Notes: generated by a model not told the origin, from the sequence alone. Positions 1-14,847 are shown, counted from the stretch's first letter. The stretch: 64,000 nt of DNA from Candidatus Bathyarchaeota archaeon (GCA_963775685.1 CAVZJV010000005.1:1-64000), one strand, 5' to 3'. Numbers and translations are program-made.

Positions 1-110
1 GCTAGTGAAGAAGCACTTCAATTAGATGTTTAATTATGGTAAAGATTCAAACATGTTCATAACACCGTTATACTTATTAAGGGAGACCGTAGAAAATATA
101 ATGTGTACAG

Positions 111-481
111 GTGATTTTTTTGAAAGATGAAAAATTTGTTTTGTATGTGCAAACAAGTGATAATCCTGAAAGACAATACTCTCCGCTAGTTTTGGCACAA
201 ACAGCGAAAGCTATGGGTCTAAACCCAAGAGTTTATTTTCTAGGGCAAGGTCTTAGGATCCTTCTTCCGGGCGCAGCCGAAAAAATAAAGCTTGGTACCT
301 TCCCCAGTGTTGCGGAAATGTTGCAAAAAACCATGCAATGGGAATCGAAATTGATGTCTGTGAAGCTTCCAAACAAATGCTCGGATGGGATAAAGTAACC
401 TTAATACCAGGAGTCAAAATCGTAGGCACGGCAACTTTAAATGACTTAGCCCTAACTGCAAATGCCACAATGTGGTTCTAA
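111..481 (+). CDS. DsrE/DsrF-like sulfur-relay protein, one apparent frameshift near 340
   Basis: The N-part VLYVQTSDNPERQYSPLVLAQTAKAMG..VYFLGQG continues in another frame as GIEIDVCEASKQMLG...VGTATLNDLALTANATMWF, ending TAA at 479-481. This is typical DsrE architecture, next to tusA. Confidence 0.8.
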
Positions 482-525
482 ACTACCACAACATCTTAAA
501 ATAGAAATGATTCGGAGAGGAAGTT

Positions 526-762
526 GTGGCTGCTAAGATCTATAAAAAACTCGATACCTTGGGATTATATTGTCCCGAACCAGTCTTCAGAACTAGATTA
601 GCACTTGATGAAATGGAGATAGGTCAGATTTTGGAGGTTGTTGCTGATGATCCTGCTGCAGAAGCAGACATCAATAGCCTTGTAAAGTACACAGGACAAG
701 AGTTGGTTTCTATTTCTAAAGAGGGCAATATCCTTCGGATTTTGATTAAAAAAATAAGTTAA
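526..762 (+). CDS. tusA: Sulfurtransferase TusA family protein
   Basis: LDTLGLYCPEP motif, EVVADDPAAEADI, 78 aa. Confidence 0.9.
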   Translation: MAAKIYKKLDTLGLYCPEPVFRTRLALDEMEIGQILEVVADDPAAEADINSLVKYTGQELVSISKEGNILRILIKKIS

Positions 763-860
763 AATGTCCCTAATGCACCCCCGGACTAAGTTTTTGCATA
801 AAATAACTTACTTTTGGTCTCTGCTATTTTTGAGGTTAATTTCCTTTTGGTAATTGCATG

Positions 861-918
861 TGCTGTGCAATGACAGGGTCTTTAGATGTGAGGAGGGTGC
901 CCTTTAAGGAGGTGTACT
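861..918 (+). repeat. Dispersed non-coding 58-bp repeat, copy 1
   Basis: Manual alignment to the reverse complement of 9169-9225 gives 49/58 identities with one gap. Confidence 0.8.
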
Positions 919-1419
919 AACGAGTGATTGTTTTTTCCATTTTAACAAGCCTCTATGTCTTGCAGAACAGCTTCTACATCTTTTCTGGTCTGCTGGAATT
1001 TTTCTCCACTCAGGCGTCTTTGCGCGAGCTTTTAACTTTTTCTTGCAATCACAACAGTAATATTTCGTTGGCTTTTCCCTAATTCAAAGACTTGCAAGTT
1101 TTATTTCACACCAATCTATTTTTTATTTATGTCCTAGGTCTCTTTTTTATATTTTTATCGGCAAAGATACTGTTGCATTTCTTGATGATAAGAAAATGCC
1201 TTTTACAACGCTGGATCCTCAAGTTGAAGAGAGTTTCGTTAGGGATATATTCGCTATTAAGTCTTCTTGTTTGGTTTTAGCAAGCTTCAAGCAATCGAAG
1301 CGTCTTGAGATACCGCTATCATAGAGTTGTAGTGGACGCATTCAATGAAAAATCAATTTACACCTATTGTAAACACGACATAATAAAAAAAGATATGACC
1401 AACCTCAAGGCTGTTAAAT

Positions 1420-2143
1420 TAATAATTATGAATCTATTTTGAATCGCAGAGTGATCTTGTCTGCTCCAGCCTTTGCCTTGAGTTCGGCGGGTGTCCCTTC
1501 GGCTACGATTTTTCCTTGATCTACATGCATAATCTGTTGGCTAAGCGATCTGCTTCTTCCATGTATTGTGTGGTTAGAAATATTGTCGTGCCTTAACGGT
1601 TGAGTTTGATTATGTATCCCAGATGTCTTGCCTGCTCTGAGGATCTAGCCCCGTTGTGGGCTCATCCAGAACAGAATTTTTGGATCTGAAAATAGCGATG
1701 AGCTACGTCTAGTGTTTTCTCATTCCTCCCGAAAATGTTTTCAATCGTCTATCGGCGGCCTCAGAGAGGCGAATAGTTTGGAGGAGCTCGTTTACATTGG
1801 TTTTTGCTTTTTCCTTTGGAATATGGTGAAATCTGCATTGGAGCATAAGGTTCTCGCGGGCGGTGAGGTCTTCATCTACGCCTACTTTCTGTGAGGAGTA
1901 GCCGATTATTCGTTTCACTTTTGCTTGGTCAGCATCGATGTTTAGTTTATCGATTGTGGCGTTTTTCAGAGGTTTTTTCCAGCAATGTTGTGAGAATTTT
2001 TATTGTTGTGCTTTTGCCCGCCCCGTTTGGGCCCAAGAAACCGAAGATCTCTCCTTTCTTAACTGTAAATGATATGCCATCTACAGCAATTACGTTTTTT
2101 TATAAGTTTTATGCAGATTATCGATAACTACGATGTCTTCCAC
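1420..2143 (-). pseudogene. ABC transporter ATP-binding subunit (DrrA/ABC-2 type), decayed
   Basis: [17 protein letters not shown] Walker A, FSGGMRK signature and LDEPTTGLDP are spread over several frames with stops. No permease gene is adjacent. The 3' end is approximate. Confidence 0.8.
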
Positions 2144-2201
2144 TCAAATAGTCATCATTAAACAAAATAATAAGAAAAAAAGAAGGTATTTTTGTTTTGC
2201 T

Positions 2202-2618
2202 CTACTTTGGAATGAGCACTTTGTCGATTATGTGAATTACGCCATTATCTGCTTTAACATCAGCTGTAATTATGTTTGCATCATTAATTTTGACAGACTT
2301 ATGAAGATGCCATTTTGCTGCATCAACTTTGAGGTCTTGTCCTTGAAGAGTTGTTAAATTCTTATGTTGAACCACATCAGATGCTGGTACAGCTGCATCA
2401 ATCACGTGGTATGTTAGAATTGCCGTCAGTTTTGGGATGTCTTTTAGAAGACCTTCTACAGTTCCCGGTGGTAGTTTCGCAAATGCAGCGTCAGTAGGAG
2501 CAAAAACAGTGTACGGACCTTTAGTGTTTAAGGTTTCGACTAGTCCAGCGGCTTGAGTAGCTGCTACTAGCGTCTTGAAATTGCCAGCAGCAACTGCAGT
2601 ATCACAAATTCCACCCAT
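2202..2618 (-). CDS. Fasciclin (FAS1) domain protein
   Basis: YTVFAPTDAAF, ILTYHV and NGVIHIIDKVL FAS1 motifs. Confidence 0.92.
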   Translation of the reverse strand: MGGICDTAVAAGNFKTLVAATQAAGLVETLNTKGPYTVFAPTDAAFAKLPPGTVEGLLKDIPKLTAILTYHVIDAAVPASDVVQHKNLTTLQGQDLKVDAAKWHLHKSVKINDANIITADVKADNGVIHIIDKVLIPK

Positions 2619-2736
2619 TATCTTTCACCTCCTAAGAAAAATAGTACTCTATCACTATACTAGTTTGCATTAAGACAAGTATAAGCTTGTCGTGTTTGAA
2701 AGTCATAATTAATACGTCATTTTTAGATTCCTGCAA

Positions 2737-2890
2737 TTAAAATTCGTAATCTATTGCCATGTTTTCTGCTGCCGCTCGGTTAAGAGCCAAGCACAGAATG
2801 CTGAAGAGTGCATACGAAGCTACGTCGCGTAAGCCTCTAACCTTATAGAGGGGCTAGACCGTAATGTGTCTTAAGGAATCTGTAGATTGC
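2737..2890 (-). pseudogene. C-terminal fragment of a DDE-type IS transposase
   Basis: The minus strand reads IYRFLKTHYGLA..(shift)..KVRGLRDVASYALFSILCLALNRAAAEN, resembling the LK...RGL-helix C-terminus of IS4/IS5-superfamily transposases. Confidence 0.5.
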
Positions 2891-2958
2891 CAAGATATGA
2901 GGTTCTTATAATACTGGCACGCGCTACTTTGGCGGCATCATGCTACTTAACAATTCGG

Positions 2959-3309
2959 TCAGAGGCGTATGCTTATCAGTTCATCTTCCACGATCTTTTC
3001 GTTGGCGAGACGGTAATAGGTGATTACTCGGGCAGAGACCTTTTTTCCGTTGGCGAGGGTGACGTTCATGTTGCCCCGAAAAACGACTGAATCGCCTTCG
3101 GCTACCAGGTCTGAGATTTCAAAATCGCGTGCCGGCAAAGAAACCTTCAGGCCAGAAACCACAGCTTTGAAGCCAATGCGGTTGGTTACGCCCATACTCG
3201 GATTCACATAGTCCGGTGCAAGCAATTCGTCGATAAGGTCAATATTGCCTTTGCCTAACACTTCTTTGATGAATTTGCGTGCGATGACTTTGTTATTATC
3301 AGTGGTCAT
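2959..3309 (-). CDS. SnoaL-like/NTF2 ester cyclase family protein
   Basis: NKVIARKFIKEVLGKGNIDLIDELLAPDYV..ISDLVAEGDSVV..YRLANEKIVE pattern. Confidence 0.85.
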   Translation of the reverse strand: MTTDNNKVIARKFIKEVLGKGNIDLIDELLAPDYVNPSMGVTNRIGFKAVVSGLKVSLPARDFEISDLVAEGDSVVFRGNMNVTLANGKKVSARVITYYRLANEKIVEDELISIRL

Positions 3310-3745
3310 TCCAGATTCTCCTTTGTTTCAAAAGCCTGCGCTGCTTAATGAAAATATGTTGGTGCGACTTTGAAGTCACAGCCATTGAACGTGAGCTTAA
3401 TTTAGGGGACAAACCAGCGCGCCATACTGCTCGCATGCATCAATGAAGCGTTTATCCTGCATTAATTGGATGCATACAAACTCAGATGTGGTACAAGCTG
3501 TGCAAGTATAATCGCTGCTTTTTGTCGAGTATTTTCTTTTTTTTTAGGATATACGCCTAATTTACCTTGATTTTACTATAGTTAATGCCTTGAATATCCT
3601 TCAATTGAAATGGATATAGTCAGTTAATGCTGAAGGTGATATGGTGGCCAAGGAGGAGGGAATTAAATTAAAAATTAGCCGTTAAGGTTGCGGTATTTCG
3701 AAACTTAGTTCAAATTCAGAAACCATAAAAGGATATGACAACAAA

Positions 3746-5023
3746 ATGAGTTTGAACTACGAAATGAAAAGCAATCTAAACGATAAGGCTGTTGATGAAT
3801 TCTTAAACAGCCAAACGAAAGAAGGAACTTTCAAGAGTTACAAAACTGTAATGAAACAATACCTGCAATATACCCAGAAGACGGGGCAAGAACTTTTAGA
3901 CATAAAGAAAGCCGACACGACTTTTCAAGTTGAAAATTCTATGCTTAACTATCGCAAACACATACTAAGCAAAGGAAAATCAGAGAATTATGCCGTTGGT
4001 TCAATCATGACAATTAGGGGATTCTATGCTTACTATCGTATGCCGTTAATGTTTAGAAAGCAAGAATCACGTAAACTTGGTGAGAAAAACCGCACCACAA
4101 CAGATTATCTATTCGACAAAGAAGACCTTGCAAAAATGGCTCTTGCTGGAAACCTAAAAGAACGCTATGTTTTGCTTGTTGGGAAATCCATCGGATTAAG
4201 AGCAAGTGATTTCTTGAGCCTTACATACGGGCAGCTTAGAAGCCTAAAACTTGAAAATGAAGCTCCTATCGCTCTCGGTGAAATAGCTACAAAGAAGGAG
4301 AGGATAAGGGCATTTCCGTTTTTAGACAGCGATGCAATACCGATTGTTAAGGCGTGGTTAGATAGCCATAAAGAACCAAAAGATAGCGACAAAATTCTCG
4401 ATGATACAGAGGATAATCTTAGCGTTATACTGCAAACTTTGGCGAAAAAGTCTGGAATGGAGATTGAGAACGGAGCAGTTCACGGCAAAAGGGTTAGATT
4501 TCATTGTATGCGTAAATTCCTTATTGACCGTTTAAGTGCTTATGCTGGTGAATCGCAATGGAAGCAAATCGTAGGCAAAAGTATTGATGAAGGCGCATAT
4601 GTTAGCCAAGATCAATTAAGAGGTATATTTCTTAGAGCAATGCCTACGCTTTTGATTGACGGAAATGGATTTAAAGCCAAAAAGCTGGAAGAGTTAGAAA
4701 ATGCGTTAAGAGCCGTTGAAAGCGAAAATGGTATATCTAAAACACGCATTGACATGATGCAGAAAACGGTTGATGAACAAAACATAAAGTTTGACCGATT
4801 ACTTGGAAATTGGGAAAGCTTGTTCAAAGGAACAAAAGATATAATCCAAGACCAAAAGAGAACAATTACTGAACTCCTAACAGAAGACTACCCAATAACC
4901 ATTAGCGTAATTGACTCTGAAACAGGAAAACGAACGATAGAAACCATTAACACCCCTGAAGAGTTGAAAAGATTCAGGGAGGACTTAAGAAAACGGCAAG
5001 AAAGTGAGATACATGCGCACTGA
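3746..5023 (+). CDS. Tyrosine recombinase/integrase with C-terminal coiled coil
   Basis: Catalytic-type motifs GLRASD (R), TKKE (K), RFHCMRK (HxxR), IVGK in place of the usual GH, and EGAYV (Y). The N-terminal region is helical and the tail is heptad-rich. Confidence 0.88.
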   Translation: MSLNYEMKSNLNDKAVDEFLNSQTKEGTFKSYKTVMKQYLQYTQKTGQELLDIKKADTTFQVENSMLNYRKHILSKGKSENYAVGSIMTIRGFYAYYRMPLMFRKQESRKLGEKNRTTTDYLFDKEDLAKMALAGNLKERYVLLVGKSIGLRASDFLSLTYGQLRSLKLENEAPIALGEIATKKERIRAFPFLDSDAIPIVKAWLDSHKEPKDSDKILDDTEDNLSVILQTLAKKSGMEIENGAVHGKRVRFHCMRKFLIDRLSAYAGESQWKQIVGKSIDEGAYVSQDQLRGIFLRAMPTLLIDGNGFKAKKLEELENALRAVESENGISKTRIDMMQKTVDEQNIKFDRLLGNWESLFKGTKDIIQDQKRTITELLTEDYPITISVIDSETGKRTIETINTPEELKRFREDLRKRQESEIHAH

Positions 5024-5234
5024 AGAACGCAATGACCTATATTACGAGCAATCTTAGAAGAATTAAAAACCGATGATTACACGATAAAAGTTACCTGATA
5101 CTCAATCGTTACACCCCTAAATTTTCCCGTTTTCTTCCCTTTCCTCTATTTTTCCTTTAAATGATACATGTCATTTGATTTTTTGAAGAGCATCGTTGGT
5201 TGTTTAAAAAGAGATACGAGTATGGGTTTTTGAG

Positions 5235-6287
5235 ATGAATGAAATGACAAAAAACGTAGTTCAAAATTGTGAAATATTCCCTAATGTGATTGTGCATATC
5301 CAGCTCAACGAATCCATAGCTCTGTTTGATTTGAATACGCAATTCCTTGATGCCTTAGTTTATCCCGATTCTGAGGTTGAAGAAGGAATTATTGAGCCAT
5401 ATGGGTTATTGTGTTTTGGAATAGAACGCGATAAAGAGTTAATCGTTAAAGCTTTAGAGTCGGCAGTTCTGCAATATCCTGACCTCAAGCGGATTGTATT
5501 ATATTGTTTGCCTTCTCTTTGCAAAGAAGCAGAATGTATAAAGCAATGCTTACAATCGGCTCGTATTGAGGTAGATGTTCGTTTCTTGCCGAAATTATGG
5601 TCTGCGCCTAATATGTTTTCCATAATATTGACGGAAGGCTCGATTGATGCCAAAAAGTCGGTTGCTTCTATTTTGAGCGAAATTCGTTCGGCTCTAAACG
5701 GGCAAGCGTATGACTTAGTCGGGTTTCAGTTCGATAGGGCAAATAGCAGAGTCGGCAATATTATAATGAAGGCGCTTAGGTTTAGCGGTTATGAAATTAG
5801 ATTTTTAGGATTCGGTCGAGAAGACAGCGAAGCTTATGAAATCTCAAATAAGAAACGTGTTTTGGCAAACTTCACAGCTACCACTTTGGCGAGCAAGGGG
5901 CGGGTGTCTTTGGATAGGGGGCTTGAAGTGCAAAATCAAGTTACGATGGAATATAGAAAAGTAAATTCGCGAATTATAATATCCACTCAACGAACTAAAC
6001 CAGACATCGTTGCTTATGACCCCCATGGAACGGTTATTGAAGTTGTAGCGGTAAAGTCCTATTCTCTTGAGGTCACAAATGGTCGCGGATGCAGAAATTG
6101 TAAGGGGCACAAATACGTGGCAAGCTTTAAAGCGTGTAGAGATGCAAAAGCTGAATGCGTAGCGGCAAAAAAGCACGGCTTAAGTCAATTGCGGTTAATA
6201 GTGATTAACCTCAAAACGAATAGAAGGATATTTGATGATAAAGTCGGATTCACTGATAAAGTGACGCTTCGAGAGAGCGATGGCTGA
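5235..6287 (+). CDS. Hypothetical protein with possible C-terminal PD-(D/E)xK nuclease-like domain
   Basis: 350-aa ORF. GLEVQNQV...KPDIVAYDPHGTVIEVVAVKS resembles Hjc-like nucleases. It also has a CRNC motif. Confidence 0.5.
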   Translation: MNEMTKNVVQNCEIFPNVIVHIQLNESIALFDLNTQFLDALVYPDSEVEEGIIEPYGLLCFGIERDKELIVKALESAVLQYPDLKRIVLYCLPSLCKEAECIKQCLQSARIEVDVRFLPKLWSAPNMFSIILTEGSIDAKKSVASILSEIRSALNGQAYDLVGFQFDRANSRVGNIIMKALRFSGYEIRFLGFGREDSEAYEISNKKRVLANFTATTLASKGRVSLDRGLEVQNQVTMEYRKVNSRIIISTQRTKPDIVAYDPHGTVIEVVAVKSYSLEVTNGRGCRNCKGHKYVASFKACRDAKAECVAAKKHGLSQLRLIVINLKTNRRIFDDKVGFTDKVTLRESDG

Positions 6288-6462
6288 CATTTTATTCCAG
6301 CATTTCCCTTTTTTCCCTTTTTTTGGTTCATTGCTCAACATACAGATTAGCAATTTAGTATCTTTTCGAAGGCAGAAGTATAAGGGGTGTAACTTGTAAC
6401 AAGTAACGGCAAGAGCGGGAAAATTTGTAATGCCTCTGATAAAATCCATTGGAGAAATAAAA

Positions 6463-6609
6463 ATGGAAATCATCAACGGTGCGTTATCAGACTTAAAAAT
6501 CCTTACAAGAAGGCAGTGCTCTACTCATTACAACAAACCAATTTTATTTATGCTAATTACCGAAGAAGAATACAGCGAAATGAAGATCCATAATCCGACC
6601 ATAAAATAA
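6463..6609 (+). CDS. Small hypothetical protein (48 aa), not in the ORF track
   Basis: GGAG RBS upstream of ATG 6463. Reads MEIINGALSDLKILTRRQCSTHYNKPILFMLITEEEYSEMKIHNPTIK. Confidence 0.4.
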   Translation: MEIINGALSDLKILTRRQCSTHYNKPILFMLITEEEYSEMKIHNPTIK

Positions 6610-6680
6610 GCATTCAAAACCGAATGAAAGCAGAATTTTTTACCTAGTAGAATGAAAAACTCTGAAACTTCATATATTGG

Positions 6681-6706
6681 AATTAGTCAAGAAAGTTTGA
6701 CTAATT
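6681..6706. promoter_or_regulatory. Perfect 10-6-10 palindrome (operator or recombinase core-type site)
   Basis: AATTAGTCAA-GAAAGT-TTGACTAATT. Confidence 0.55.
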
Positions 6707-6764
6707 TCAGTCAAGGAACTTTTACGAATAGCTTTTTATCACCTTTGATTGGTTAATACTAAGC

Positions 6765-7658
6765 ATGGGTAATATCGGCAAGAGTTTGGCATTGGTTCTA
6801 ATTATAATCATGGCTATCTCAAGTCTAACTCTAATGTTGGTTAAACCTGCAAGTGCTCAAACAATACCCTCTCCAGCTGTGCCTGAATTTACGTTAAAAC
6901 TCGTCCAGCATATCCTAAATTTTCCTCCAACATCATCCATTGACCCTTTTACAGGAAAACAAACAGTTAACGCAGGCTCCCAATTGGAATGGACAACGAT
7001 AGACATTACAATTATAAACCAAAATTTCAATGGCAAAACAGAATTTGGTGACAACACTTACACTGGCATGATGTATGATGTTGAGTTTAAGGGACACTTC
7101 GTCAATGATTGGACACAACTGGGCCCAATCAACGGTGAAGGAGCGGCTGGACCTTATTTTATTCAAAAATCAGGTTCAGCAACGGTAGTGTCGTTAGCCC
7201 TCAATGAGGCAGATATTAATACAATAACTATTTACGCGCTTGACAGTAGACCTGATAGTATAGTAACAGTTCCAGAGGGGGGTCAAGCCGATATTCGCAT
7301 TCAAGCTATGGCGGGCAATGCTTATACAAGCCGCGTTATTCCTTTCGACTCTTGGCATTTTAACGGCACTGAAAGCGAATGGAGCAATGTCCAAACCATA
7401 ACCTTCAACGAAGCAGACGCTACAACTGTAATTGTCAAACCATCAGAACAAACGCCTACCCCTACATTAACTGCTACGACTTCGCCAACGCCAACCCCAA
7501 CTCCAACCGTTCCAGAGTTTCCAACTTTGATAATCCTGCCACTTTTTGCAGTAGCAACACTTCTATCATTTGTATTTATCAGAAAGAGAATAGCCAAAAA
7601 TGCAACCAAATATTTAAGCAACTATGTAATTATGTTTACTTTAGATTTTGAACTATAA
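6765..7658 (+). CDS. Secreted surface protein with PT-rich linker and PEF-CTERM sorting signal
   Basis: Signal peptide (..VKPASA), PTPTPT linker, then VPEFP + hydrophobic helix + RKR. Confidence 0.85.
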   Translation: MGNIGKSLALVLIIIMAISSLTLMLVKPASAQTIPSPAVPEFTLKLVQHILNFPPTSSIDPFTGKQTVNAGSQLEWTTIDITIINQNFNGKTEFGDNTYTGMMYDVEFKGHFVNDWTQLGPINGEGAAGPYFIQKSGSATVVSLALNEADINTITIYALDSRPDSIVTVPEGGQADIRIQAMAGNAYTSRVIPFDSWHFNGTESEWSNVQTITFNEADATTVIVKPSEQTPTPTLTATTSPTPTPTPTVPEFPTLIILPLFAVATLLSFVFIRKRIAKNATKYLSNYVIMFTLDFEL

Positions 7659-7748
7659 CTCGGAAACCCACAATTTAAACGGCGAAATTAAAATTTAATC
7701 CAAAGAACAAATAACAAAAAGATGAACTCGAACAACTATACACCTTAA

Positions 7749-8252
7749 TCAAAAGCGTAATAATAGTTTCCTTGTTAATGAAGAAACTTTCTTATTTGTA
7801 ACCGGAAGCCCTGTTTTCTTCGCGACTATTTCTAAAGATTCTTTTACGATGGTTTGGGCAGCTTTTCCAATTGCTTCTGGAAAAATCAATTCTCCGGTGC
7901 AAACACCTTTGCAGTTTATGACTGCAAGGGGGTTTAAGTCAACAAAAATCCTATTTGTTTTATCATCGTAATCTGTGATAATAAATGGCTCCAAAACGCA
8001 TATTGACGGTTTAACATCTTGAACCTTACAAATTCCTTCTTCAGTTAAGAAGAAACAGCTTCCGTCTTTCTTTCTGCGAATGTTCCTGTTAGAAGGGTCA
8101 TTAGGGTCTTCCAAAAAATTCACGAATCCTTTAGCTTCAATCCATTGTTGTTCTTTCAAATTAATATCTGGCGGCTCGTCTCTGCAACAAACTCCACAAT
8201 TCGTACATTGAAAGCCTACTGAATCGGGAAAAATGACATTTTCAAATTGCAT
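7749..8252 (-). CDS. YkgJ-family CxxCxxCC cysteine-cluster protein
   Basis: FQCTNCGVCC..CFFL..C..KPSICVLEPF..CKG. Confidence 0.88.
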   Translation of the reverse strand: MQFENVIFPDSVGFQCTNCGVCCRDEPPDINLKEQQWIEAKGFVNFLEDPNDPSNRNIRRKKDGSCFFLTEEGICKVQDVKPSICVLEPFIITDYDDKTNRIFVDLNPLAVINCKGVCTGELIFPEAIGKAAQTIVKESLEIVAKKTGLPVTNKKVSSLTRKLLLRF

Positions 8253-8735
8253 GGTAACCCATACCTATTAAAAGCTAAATGGGCAAAAACACAGTTAAGC
8301 TTTTCAATTCGTCTTCTGAAATATACGTCTTAGTTTTTTAGACATTCATTATTTATTATTTATTTACTTTCTACTGCCTATCCAGAATAAATTATCTTTT
8401 AATCTGGTTAAAACAGCAAAACCCACTAGTAATCGTTAAAGTGTGTGGGATTAAAATTTAATTTTTTTCCCCCTCAACTTCTAACTAACTACTACTGACT
8501 ACTTCTCTCATCTAACCACTCTCACTACTACTCTCTCTCCTTTAGCACACACAAGACAAACAAACAGACAAACAAAAAATGCGTGCCTAACGAGGTAAAT
8601 GAATTACTCCTGTCTGCACAAGAGTAATCAGAAAGCCGTTTATTTTTGGCACCCCAAGACCTAAAAAAACACTATAATCGTTTCGTCAGATTAAAACCAG
8701 AATAACCGCATGAACCAAAGCTAATCCACCAACAA

Positions 8736-12759: not shown

Positions 12760-13066
12760 TTCTAAAAATTCTGCATGACATTCTACATATTAATTTGAAG
12801 TTAAATGCTACACAGTATCTTGTATAGGTTTTCAGAAATGAAGAATCTATTTCGCGCATGAGGATAGATTGTGTATGTGAGTATTTGACAAATATTTGAG
12901 CGGTTAGTGTAGTTAAAAGATAGATATTTTTTGCCTTTGTCTTTTTTGGAGAACTACGTTTTTGGTTGGGTTCCCGCGGATAATACATCCATGAAATAAT
13001 CTCAAACTTCCCTTTACACATCGATTTCATGTTTTGCTATCGAAAGGATTTGTTTGATTACGATAA

Positions 13067-13238
13067 TTAGGAACCAATGACAAAACCAACAACGAGTCCT
13101 AAGTCTATAGGCAGCATGCCTACGAGAAGTACCCTATCTCGCACTGCTATAGGACCATATGTATCTGCAATACCCTTCAAAAGGTGCCAAAGAGCTAAAA
13201 GGGTACCCGTTTTTTTACTTTTTTATTTAGGCTAACAT
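13067..13238 (-). CDS. Tail-anchored microprotein A (ADTYGPIA motif), 5' end frameshifted
   Basis: Reads TLLALWHLLKGIADTYGPIAVRDRVLLVGMLPIDLGLVVGFVIGS*. Paralog of 14954-15129. Confidence 0.6.
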
Positions 13239-13307
13239 GCTCCCAAACTTAATAATAAAAAAATGAAAAGATAGCCAAACCAAAATTCCTATCTACCCAC
13301 CTACACG

Positions 13308-13604
13308 CTACGTAGGTCTTAGGTAGACCGCTAACTGATCTTTTGTTACCTTAAGGTTTATTCCTTTTTCGCTACAGCATAAAACCCCTTTTTGCAACGC
13401 AGAAATCGCCAAGGTATTTCTTGGCAGATCAAACAACGCAGGCTTTACCCCAAGAATTTGTTCAGTAGCTTCCTTAGTTAATTCGATTTCAAGATGAGTT
13501 ATTTTCCACTCTTCAGTATCCATAACGACGTCTTTAACTTTACCTATAACAAAACCATTTGCGCCAGTCACAGTTTGGTTAACTAATTCATTAAATTTCA
13601 TCAA
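13308..13604 (-). CDS. PRC-barrel domain protein
   Basis: ELVNQTVTGANGFVIGKVKDVVMDTEEWKITHLEI. Confidence 0.85.
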   Translation of the reverse strand: MMKFNELVNQTVTGANGFVIGKVKDVVMDTEEWKITHLEIELTKEATEQILGVKPALFDLPRNTLAISALQKGVLCCSEKGINLKVTKDQLAVYLRPT

Positions 13605-13824
13605 AATCTACTCCAATCAAAACATAACGAATTTTTCCCTATAAAGTTTGCCGTTGCTAATCGGATGCAAGCATTTGTTAACCATCCTATCCACCATACT
13701 TTTTAAGAAATACAGCAAATCCTGTTTCAAAGGTTTATTCCCCATTCAATTCCACATTTTTCCAATAAAAAAACTGGAACTCACCCGTCCAAATTTTTGT
13801 TTCACAATGGTTACGTTAAGTCTA

Positions 13825-14847
13825 TTATGGATGAGCCCAATTCAGAAAGGACCCAAAATCATACGAAAGTACCAAAGAGGGTTCTACATAGCAGTGAAGA
13901 GTACATTCCTGACAGTTTTGTGTGTCTTTCCAGTCAAAACATGATATGGCCTTTTTAATACTGGTATCAAAAACAGAAATGGTTTTAGCATATTCATTCC
14001 GAACATAACAAGGTAAAACCAAATACCCTTCAGGACTTACATTAATCGTGGACCAAGGTTTGCAGGTCCATTTCTTCTCTTTTGCAATCACTCCAAAATA
14101 GCCAATTGAATTTATCAATGGAAAACCTTTATTCTTTAATTCAACAAGCTTTCCGGTTATCTCTCTGATTTTAAGTCTAGCGGGAGTTGACGCGTCTGTT
14201 TCATAGTATTCATGAGCTATTGCCACAGATATTTTTACATTCAATCCTTTTGCCAACTTTACCAGATCTTCAATCTCATGGATATTCTCGTTCATTATTG
14301 TCGTGTTAATAATCACAGGAACCTTTTTTGAAGCTGCAATGATACCTTGAAGTGTTTTTTTGAAACAGCCATGTACACCCCTGATAGCATCATGAGTTTT
14401 CTCTAATCCATCCAAGGAAACGTAAATTGCGCCATTGATGTATTGTGATATATCATCTATTTTAGATTCAAGAAGAGTGCCATTGGTAACTATGCTTGTT
14501 TGCAAAGGCAGAGATCTTGAAAATGCCAGAATTTTGTTTAAGTCCTTTCTTAGTAGCGGTTCTCCGCCTTCAAACGCGATCGCGCAAACACCCGCATCAT
14601 AAATTTGTCTCAGGATTGCTTTTTCCTTATCAATACTTAAATCTCGATTAGTTCTTTTCCAGAAGGGGCACATTTTGCATCTGAGGTTACAATTATAAGT
14701 TAATTTATGTCCGCAAAACAGTGGAGCCCTTACGCCTAACACGTTTGAAAGCAACCCTCGACTTATTCTAAGACCTAACCTTAAAGTTTCCTGACAATGC
14801 ATAGTTCCGTTTTCATGAACTGTTTGAGGGCTCAATATTTGCTTCAT
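13825..14847 (-). CDS. Radical SAM protein, archaeal PTO1314-like family, with C-terminal Cys cluster
   Basis: GHKLTYNCNLRCKMCPFW (CxxxCxxC), FEGGEPLL, SLDG, and C-terminal C..PCY..CQECTLHC. 340 aa. Confidence 0.85.
   Translation of the reverse strand: MKQILSPQTVHENGTMHCQETLRLGLRISRGLLSNVLGVRAPLFCGHKLTYNCNLRCKMCPFWKRTNRDLSIDKEKAILRQIYDAGVCAIAFEGGEPLLRKDLNKILAFSRSLPLQTSIVTNGTLLESKIDDISQYINGAIYVSLDGLEKTHDAIRGVHGCFKKTLQGIIAASKKVPVIINTTIMNENIHEIEDLVKLAKGLNVKISVAIAHEYYETDASTPARLKIREITGKLVELKNKGFPLINSIGYFGVIAKEKKWTCKPWSTINVSPEGYLVLPCYVRNEYAKTISVFDTSIKKAISCFDWKDTQNCQECTLHCYVEPSLVLSYDFGSFLNWAHP

Follow-up and report, generated by a model that had tools for sequence, protein, structure and literature searches.

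Which kind of mobile DNA places a single tyrosine-recombinase gene between imperfect inverted ends in a genome of the Bathyarchaeia, and where does it insert? The question arises in the first 64 kb of contig C5 (the whole stretch of 64,000 nucleotides analysed here, hereafter "the window") in a 3.06-Mb assembly of 14 contigs from Candidatus Bathyarchaeota archaeon (GCA_963775685.1; genome G000), which the source names of homologous proteins and loci place in the Bathyarchaeia. At 3662–7699, a sequence-only reading had proposed a compact transposon-like element with 56-bp terminal inverted repeats, one tyrosine recombinase and surface-protein cargo, and had likened it to Tn916. On our analysis, positions 3674–7693 are probably a 4,020-bp site-specific integrative element of this Bathyarchaeia genome and not a transposon of the Tn916 type. 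The evidence that carries this reading is a short core repeated in direct orientation at both junctions, two conserved types of inverted arm inside it, a palindromic 13-mer that is already present where the element is absent, and an integrase whose predicted fold is that of the tyrosine recombinases.

Inverted arms, direct core and palindromic target

The inverted repeat is real and beyond chance. Window positions 3662–3717 match the reverse complement of 7644–7699 at 40 of 56 positions without a gap, and 40 is also the score of the top-scoring 56-mer between the 451 nt upstream of the integrase gene and 700 nt around the right end; 300 first-order Markov resamples (mean 30.2, standard deviation 1.2) and 194 pairs of real pieces cut from the window each had a maximum of 34, and 0 in either control came to 40. 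The inner, element-specific 44 nt match at 30 positions, a score that 0 of 217 control pairs attained. The claimed 56-bp ends thus survive both realignment and controls, as do two details beside them: the integrase open reading frame (ORF) begins at 3746, 29 nt past 3717 and so just inside the left end, and the last cargo gene (6765–7658) stops within the right arm. In the whole 3.06-Mb genome, a regular expression finds the arm motif only at 3688(+) and 7673(−), and a profile of 17 ends finds only the window's two ends at E<0.01 (next best, E 0.33).

The sequence-only reading had reported no direct-repeat att pair and no target duplication, and in this it was mistaken. The 9-bp sequence AAATTAAAA lies in direct orientation at 3665–3673 and 7685–7693, and within it stands the 7-bp core ATTAAAA: on the left at 3667–3673 (plus strand; attL, the putative crossover region) and on the right at 7687–7693, where it makes up the first 7 nt of the 13-mer ATTAAAATTTAAT (attR, 7687–7699, plus strand), the rest of which is target-derived. 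The 4,020 bp are the unit between the cores, one core included. Homology to other DNA breaks within the tips of the repeat, which is where the proposed borders had placed the synteny breakpoints. On the left, blastn pairs window 1–3677 with C1 101120–97443 at 99.8%, a 3.68-kb duplication; read base by base, the identity is kept through 3673, after which C1 continues with the remainder of the 13-mer and then unrelated DNA. On the right, window 7687–8511 matches C2 10460–9646 at 93%, the homology starting exactly at the 13-mer 7687–7699, and it starts at 7687 also in G012, G071, G001, G126 and G116 (~90–92%), that is, in six of eleven relatives' loci (L113–L116 and L118 from these five genomes, plus C2 of G000). 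Since sites without the element already hold the 13-mer, the outer 12–13 bp of each "terminal inverted repeat" belong to the palindromic target; the first 8 repeat positions match perfectly because these outer 12–13 nt are the two halves of that target.

The same junctions recur in relatives. Loci were gathered around homologues of the integrase (17 from genome contigs and 47 from metagenome contigs), and a first end profile, built from seven ends, was run on all of them. Three complete elements with an intact integrase were found, in the window, in L026 and in L045, and 3/3 have the same 7-bp core at both junctions; ATTAAAA also marks the left junctions of L026, L027, L029 and L045. In the three complete elements the left junction reads G-rich flank, ATTAAAA and then ATTAGCCGT, and the right junction CGGCGAA (or GGGCAA), then ATTAAAATTTAAT, then a C-rich flank.

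Inside the cores lie two kinds of arm. The L-type arm (3674–3729, plus strand), with the blocks GCCGT, TTGCGG and TAGTTCAAA, is recovered by nhmmer over 3663–3729 (E 1e-17 and 7.5e-18) and runs into the integrase upstream region, which contains a Shine-Dalgarno-like AAGGA. The R-type arm (7633–7686, minus strand) is inverted relative to it, is recovered over 7698–7633 (E 1.2e-13 and 5.6e-13) and has its own conserved sequence, common to the right ends of L026, L045, L110, L141 and L157. In the alignment of 17 ends, left and right arms each form a conserved type and are not mere inverted copies of one another. The upstream motif that the sequence-only reading had expected beside homologous integrases is there in close relatives: among loci with at least 130 nt upstream of the integrase, the left arm lies directly upstream in 8 of the 9 that share at least 70% protein identity.

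Convergent L-type and R-type arms bound six elements, three with an intact integrase (the window's, 4.0 kb; L026, G026:C64, 7.65 kb; L045, 6.9 kb) and three without. The latter, L110 (G029:C11:929650–931428, 1.78 kb), L141 (G003:C1:986068–987885, 1.8 kb) and L157 (G143:C21:120359–123149, 2.8 kb), have both arm types and the core, enclose no integrase or just its first 47 codons, and have only ~90 nt per end in common with the intact elements. Their cargo is unrelated, comprising across the three a zinc-ribbon protein, a NosD/beta-helix protein with a membrane anchor, and a DUF7347 protein with membrane proteins. Judged by sequence, they are candidate non-autonomous elements, and two conserved arm types together with integrase-less units are as expected of attachment-site arms and their non-autonomous derivatives. 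A sequence-only covariance model matches in 32 of 120 genomes of the genus and gives convergent pairs on one contig in G000, G026, G143, G003 and G029; a further pair, in G131:C3, was set aside, its identical flanks lying inside a large inverted duplication of ABC-transporter genes. At that locus (L158, G131:C3:75000–86000), identical arm-like sequences stand at both inner borders of the duplication, which is a genuine palindromic rearrangement or else a product of the assembly.

A presence/absence polymorphism places the recombination at the 13-mer. L045 1–551 matches G003 through one 13-mer (92.7%), and the same 13-mer of G003 runs on into the sequence after the right arm of L045 (L045 7738–7776, 95%); L045 has 7,199 bp between two direct 13-mers (539–551 and 7738–7750) where G003 has one. 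As far as the alignment goes, this difference is what conservative recombination at the 13-mer leaves behind, whether by a presumed insertion in one lineage or by an excision in the other. The genes on either side of the L045 insert encode a HAD hydrolase and phosphoglycerate kinase, and in eight related genomes they are neighbours, separated by a short AT-rich spacer that lacks the 13-mer; G003 is an intermediate state.

The target itself is palindromic except for its central base. The 13-mer ATTAAAATTTAAT or its complement occurs in 10 copies in this genome and 148 times in 37 genomes of the genus, against 18 for a reversed-word control (~8-fold enriched); in 24 genomes outside the genus the counts are 7 and 9. 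Its surroundings are stereotyped: to the left are runs such as GGTTGGTTGG, GTGTGTGGG and GGTTTGGGG, to the right their complements, often followed by 100–140 nt of G-poor, low-complexity sequence, and sites are often 0.1–4 kb apart. The 64-kb window holds just two 13-mers plus the left junction, and a search there for a wider array gave 14 loose matches against 8.3 expected, the close matches being the known sites only. The second 13-mer, at 8450–8462 (plus strand), had been noticed as a recurrence of 7687–7699 and tentatively called another end or a target site; it does recur, and it is a target-type site, unoccupied and G-rich on its left side, at which homology to C14 666643–666772 begins exactly. 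Adjoining it is a C/A/T-rich, G-poor tract (8463–8580, plus strand) of the repeat family that accompanies these sites. No tRNA gene was found, as had been stated: ARAGORN finds none in the 64-kb window, Rfam gives no match at E≤1 within 3300–8700, and with both searches negative TAGTTCAAAT was rejected as a tRNA fragment.

Some further observations concern the target. The G-poor tracts of 100–140 nt that start at 13-mers form a loose repeat family (window 8463–8580, C14:666643–666772, C2:6521, the left flank of L027, and L045 7751–7890), the tract in L045 being part of the inserted DNA and not ancestral intergenic spacer. In G026:C139 (L136), the same 22 nt lie to the left of each of two 13-mers (within 1605–1639 and 5183–5217) that are 3.58 kb apart; the direct repeat so formed, at least 35 nt long, may mark the ends of a different type of insertion, and a third 13-mer follows 0.8 kb further on. 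At L058 7647–7722, the 13-mer lies ~60 nt upstream of an integrase that is only 59% identical to that of the window, and the inner arm sequence is different; in G012:C16 a similar arm start follows the 13-mer to the right of 83302–83314 (L113), a locus at which no integrase was found. One target may serve several integrase subfamilies.

A divergent Xer/Cre-like integrase

The recombinase gene (3746–5023, plus strand) encodes 425 residues, which Pfam, PHROGs and a structure model together assign to a two-domain, Xer/Cre-like tyrosine recombinase with a C-terminal coiled coil (~308–378). Sequence profiles place it only distantly: PHROG 216 "integrase" matches at E 9.8e-6, NCBIfam XerD at 19.4 bits against a cut-off of 329.6, and a profile of the integrase searched against PDB sequences returned coiled coils and no recombinase. 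The structure speaks more clearly. An AlphaFold2 model from 25 homologues (pLDDT 82.7) has 55 Foldseek matches in the PDB at E≤0.001, among those listed XerA, lambda Int, IntI, XerH, Tn1549 Int, Cre and XerD. The best is XerA (5hxy, E 2.6e-8; also 4a8e), with Tn1549 Int (6en2) at E 7e-5 and IntI (2a3v) at rank 10. The model therefore folds like XerA, lambda Int and Cre, as is required of a member of the tyrosine recombinase superfamily.

The catalytic pattern expected of these enzymes is R...K...HxxR...[H/W]...Y, and R152, K184, H253, R256 and Y285 are invariant in the 25 homologues, their catalytic roles being given by motif order. In the model the helices begin at residue 14, already within the core-binding domain, which leaves no sign of a separate domain for arm binding. 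A long helix (308–378) follows the catalytic domain in every aligned homologue and is variable in sequence; that it serves synapsis is speculation. The protein has 230 relatives at E≤0.001, mostly unnamed or "hypothetical protein", and homologues in 13 of 61 related genomes; none was found on IMG/VR viral contigs. G000 is itself rich in other integrases. It has 19 matches to PF00589, 16 of them above the cut-off and the window integrase not among them at genome-level thresholds; with 16 other such genes above the cut-off, the window integrase is not the host Xer.

Weighing the readings of the locus

The mechanism we favour is an ordinary cut-and-paste cycle, like that of systems of the lambda, Xer or Cre type. 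A single Xer/Cre-like recombinase would bind the inverted L-type and R-type arms and exchange strands within the 7-bp core ATTAAAA, directly oriented at both junctions; recombination of attL with attR would release a non-replicating circle in which the arms face each other over one core, an imperfect palindrome of ~100 bp that would serve as attP. The circle could re-enter any near-palindromic 13-mer ATTAAAATTTAAT with G-rich and C-rich flanking runs, of which about ten copies are dispersed in the genome, and the variable cargo would be accessory. The circular intermediate, the exact cleavage positions, the binding of the arms by the integrase and activity at the present day are what we infer from this arrangement.

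The element resembles Tn916 and Tn1549 in its tyrosine recombinase, its imperfect inverted ends, its AT-rich target and the structural match to Tn1549 Int; those transposons also pass through a circular intermediate. A transposon of this type would make staggered cuts in non-identical coupling sequences, form a heteroduplex circle, choose loosely AT-rich targets and have no att core. Here, however, an identical word stands beside both arms in every complete intact element and pre-exists in full, as part of the 13-mer, in element-free sites; the modelled integrase opens with core-binding helices and leaves no room for an N-terminal arm-binding domain; and among the four ORFs of this 4-kb element, scanned against Pfam, NCBIfam, PHROGs and PADLOC, no Xis-like, conjugation or mobilisation family was detected, although a small, divergent Xis could escape such a scan. 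The earlier analogy fails on these grounds: the non-identical coupling sequences that define the class are not what the junctions hold, membership was rejected, and we consider a Tn916-type mechanism very unlikely. The repeat might instead be mainly regulatory, a promoter or operator of the integrase or of a repressor, with the true borders elsewhere or the locus a fixed island remnant. It is true that the L arm overlaps the integrase upstream region, that L026, L028, L045 and L047 contain third, core-less copies, and that the polymorphic block of L045 extends 260 nt past its left arm. But the R arm points into the element, where it has no gene to drive, and it overlaps the 3′ end of the last cargo gene (ORF4); three integrase-less elements with unrelated cargo keep exactly two arms and the core, and the homology breakpoints adjoin the arms. 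We regard a mainly regulatory role as improbable.

A recombinase gene between inverted repeats, next to a 13-mer that is palindromic but for one base, also recalls a phase-variation switch, in which the recombinase flips the segment between the repeats. Inversion is hard to reconcile with an asymmetric core that is directly oriented at both ends, with the same arms bounding completely different content at different loci, and with a polymorphism that is one of presence and absence and not of orientation, and it strikes us as extremely improbable. That the borders are artefacts of mixed-strain or chimeric assembly at short repeats deserves thought, given that the window starts at a contig end, that the opening 3.68 kb are found again in C1 at 99.8% and that several small contigs overlap one another. 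Yet the same architecture appears in independent assemblies and in metagenome contigs, and a 13-bp repeat should be too short to mislead an assembler, so we give this explanation very little credence.

The integrative-element reading has its own difficulties, and these should be set against it. All sequences compared are metagenome-type assemblies. Neither a circle junction nor an excised site was seen: three runs of the one public study with parts of the sequence gave 12 short contig pieces (good matches of 151–353 nt) with no joints and neither junction covered. The integrase reaches 20.9 bits against Pfam PF00589 (Phage_integrase), below the cut-off of 27.1 (E 3.2e-4), and has an invariant lysine (K278) at the position usually held by His or Trp. 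The left arm is seldom found with distance: the profile detects it at 2 of 16 loci of 60–70% identity and at 0 of 31 below 60%; weaker upstream matches in L078, L031, L064 and L057 (E 3e-7 to 1e-4) fall outside the distance rule and were not counted. The right arm was found in just 2 of 8 related loci with at least 70% identity and at least 4 kb downstream, and as L029 and L046 seem to be one element, the number of independent cases is 7 at most. It was not found within 24 kb in G029:C11; a gapped local search on seven loci, with the profile, revealed no right end within 10 kb for L027, L029/L046, L047 and L061, and the profile search none within 24 kb for L028.

Also on this side of the balance, core-less third arm-like copies lie in direct orientation inside four elements, 1.1–1.4 kb beyond the integrase match (~0.9–1.3 kb past the stop) in L026, L028 and L045 and ~1.9 kb in L047, so the arm motif may also be an operator. 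The polymorphic insert of L045 takes in 260 nt outside the left arm and is either a two-step array or a composite of the integrase element and a 260-nt left piece. For the window's own copy, no exact empty site was found among C1, C2 and relatives: the left flank recurs in C1 with a different right side, the right flank in C2 and relatives with different left sides, and to explain these other partners one needs later rearrangement, strain mixture or assembly chimerism. Of the left-flank DNA from 2100 to 3661, relatives conserve just the SnoaL and fasciclin genes; in C1 alone does the match extend to 3661.

A wider and rather doubtful idea is that the 13-mer, with its G- and C-rich flanks and G-poor tracts, is the common recombination site of a modular system, similar to an integron, that is native to the genus. 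Integrase-bearing elements may then be autonomous and may also move integrase-less units in trans, among them the arm-bounded elements of 1.8–2.8 kb, one-gene modules such as 7700–8449 and the 260-nt piece of L045. Such a system, if it exists, would explain why the flanks of the window recur with different partners, and it would produce arrays of modules 0.1–4 kb apart and rearrangements between dispersed sites.

Cargo, known systems and significance

Between the integrase and the right arm lie three more ORFs. ORF2 (5235–6287, plus strand; 350 residues) has no match in the four family libraries and 23 relatives among 1.8 billion representatives. Its model (pLDDT 81.7; D257 and K274 invariant) gives only weak, methyltransferase-like matches in Foldseek, and the domain reading rests on VIA-align, with Z scores of 7–10.7, a range that the tool rates as middling except for the Alba-like match. 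It predicts a restriction-endonuclease-like domain at 10–124 (Z ~7–7.8, a range that the tool rates as common), an Alba-like domain at 126–207 (Z 10.7, root-mean-square deviation 2.1 over 76 residues) and a nuclease fold like the Holliday-junction resolvases Hjc and Hje at 225–348 (Z 8.7 and 8.3). It is suggestive that a predicted junction-resolvase-like domain is encoded beside an enzyme whose reaction generates Holliday junctions, but the other elements lack ORF2, which is therefore cargo and not core machinery. ORF3 (6430–6609, plus strand; 59 residues) has, judged by eye, a short stretch in common with a 91-residue ORF of L026 (7037–7312), itself with only a sub-threshold TFIIE-beta match, and may be a remnant.

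ORF4 (6765–7658, plus strand; 297 residues) has a signal-peptide-like N-terminus, a Thr/Pro linker and a tail of PEF, hydrophobic helix and basic residues, which by eye we take to be a sorting signal. Pfam and NCBIfam give no family match, and NCBIfam no PEF-CTERM; paralogous tails of this type occur elsewhere in the genome. From these sequence features, ORF4 is a putative secreted, surface-anchored protein. The notion of an element devoted to surface-protein cargo holds in part, membrane and surface proteins being frequent, but the cargo differs from element to element and includes the nuclease-like ORF2, helix-turn-helix proteins, an insertion sequence of the DDE type (a DDE_Tnp_1 transposase gene at L026 4592–5728, inside the 7.65-kb element) and a HEPN/Abi-like gene. 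This last (L045 6177–6956) has a Swt1-like HEPN match above the cut-off and a sub-threshold Abi_2 match, by which an abortive-infection or toxin function is possible. The element is compact, as had been described: it has one tyrosine recombinase, and none of the four libraries recognises a gene for replication, capsid or conjugation in it.

The left flank (1–3673), duplicated in C1 up to the core, carries fasciclin and SnoaL genes among others (Pfam). To the right, between the two 13-mers, lies a 776-bp one-gene module (7700–8449, minus strand) encoding a CxxCxxCC protein (7749–8252; PF03692). In G012, 92% homology to it ends at both 13-mers, and in G071, G001, G126 and G116 at the left one; G019, G004, G110, G131 and G002 have the gene without the 13-mers. 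This pattern would suit a chromosomal gene with an integration hot spot on each side as well as a mobile module of one gene. Further along, window 12958–14771 contains other repeats common to C14 and C13, 13190–13647 being 93% identical to C14 803050–803507, and a radical-SAM-like ORF (13825–14847) has DNA paralogues at 67–69%. Among the small contigs of G000, C2 overlaps C1 and C6; these look like alternative arrangements of a variable region.

Among described systems, the element fits the archaeal category of "cryptic integrated elements", as defined for Thaumarchaeota in the portion of the source available to us (PMC6563490). Like them it has a tyrosine recombinase, variable cargo and short direct-repeat att sites, and lacks the hallmark genes of viruses, plasmids and conjugation; some members of that category lie between genes, and repeated use of one site builds arrays. 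It differs in its Bathyarchaeia host, in an integrase below the Pfam cut-off with a C-terminal coiled coil, in a target that is a dispersed 13-bp palindrome and not a tRNA gene or unique site, and in conserved inverted arms of ~50 bp, both of which the integrase-less derivatives keep. With Xer/dif, Cre/loxP and lambda attL/attR it shares inverted binding arms around a short asymmetric overlap identical in both partners; archaeal dif is 11 + 6 + 11 nt in the part of the review consulted (PMC8371274), whereas here three conserved blocks reach out to ~50 bp, left and right arm types differ, the chromosomal partner is multi-copy and the recombinase travels on the mobile unit, in only 13 of 61 related genomes. 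That distribution, the 10 copies of the 13-mer and the 16 other PF00589 genes led us to reject a host XerA/dif resolution system.

The SE, GInt, RIT and Tn554-related elements likewise have target-site specificity and imperfect inverted motifs at their ends, which in the joined form stand opposite one another with a short spacer between; they are bacterial and use two to four dedicated proteins (IntA/Tfp/IntB/Srap, RitABC, TnpABC), so far as the accessible text describes them (PMC10214605). We rejected this type, one recombinase ORF lying between the arms and not two or three adjacent ones. Integrons resemble the present case in that a tyrosine recombinase acts on palindromic sites bounding short gene modules, much as the 13-mers cluster 0.1–4 kb apart. 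Their attC sites, however, are hairpins of 60–140 nt, whereas these are 13-bp duplex palindromes with G/C-rich flanks, and the recombinase sits inside the mobile unit and not on a fixed platform with attI and Pc; an integron platform was rejected, the integrase lying between its own two sites in a window with two 13-mers plus the left junction. Integrons have been reported in archaeal metagenome-assembled genomes, according to the part of the preprint at hand (10.1101/2022.02.06.479319). The literature searched, the accessible sections of the archaeal tyrosine recombinase review (PMC8371274) included, contains no description of this integrase-element family, its coverage being incomplete; like the four protein-family libraries it supplies no name, in agreement with the sequence-only reading. 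The element is unusual in its divergent integrase, its long arms of two types, its multi-copy palindromic target with low-complexity flanks and its integrase-less derivatives.

Bathyarchaeia are abundant in soils and sediments and have very few cultured members, and we know of no genetic tools for them. Their mobile DNA is known mainly from viruses, to judge from the portion of the source seen (PMC10541130). The element family is small and has sharp borders. With one recombinase, a 13-bp target and natural integrase-less derivatives, the recombination reaction is directly testable in vitro, and the element family is a candidate chassis for site-specific insertion in Bathyarchaeia. Families of mobile elements lie hidden behind integrases that miss the curated thresholds and are mostly annotated as "hypothetical protein", and the dispersed palindromic target may be part of the reason why these genomes have variable regions that are hard to assemble.

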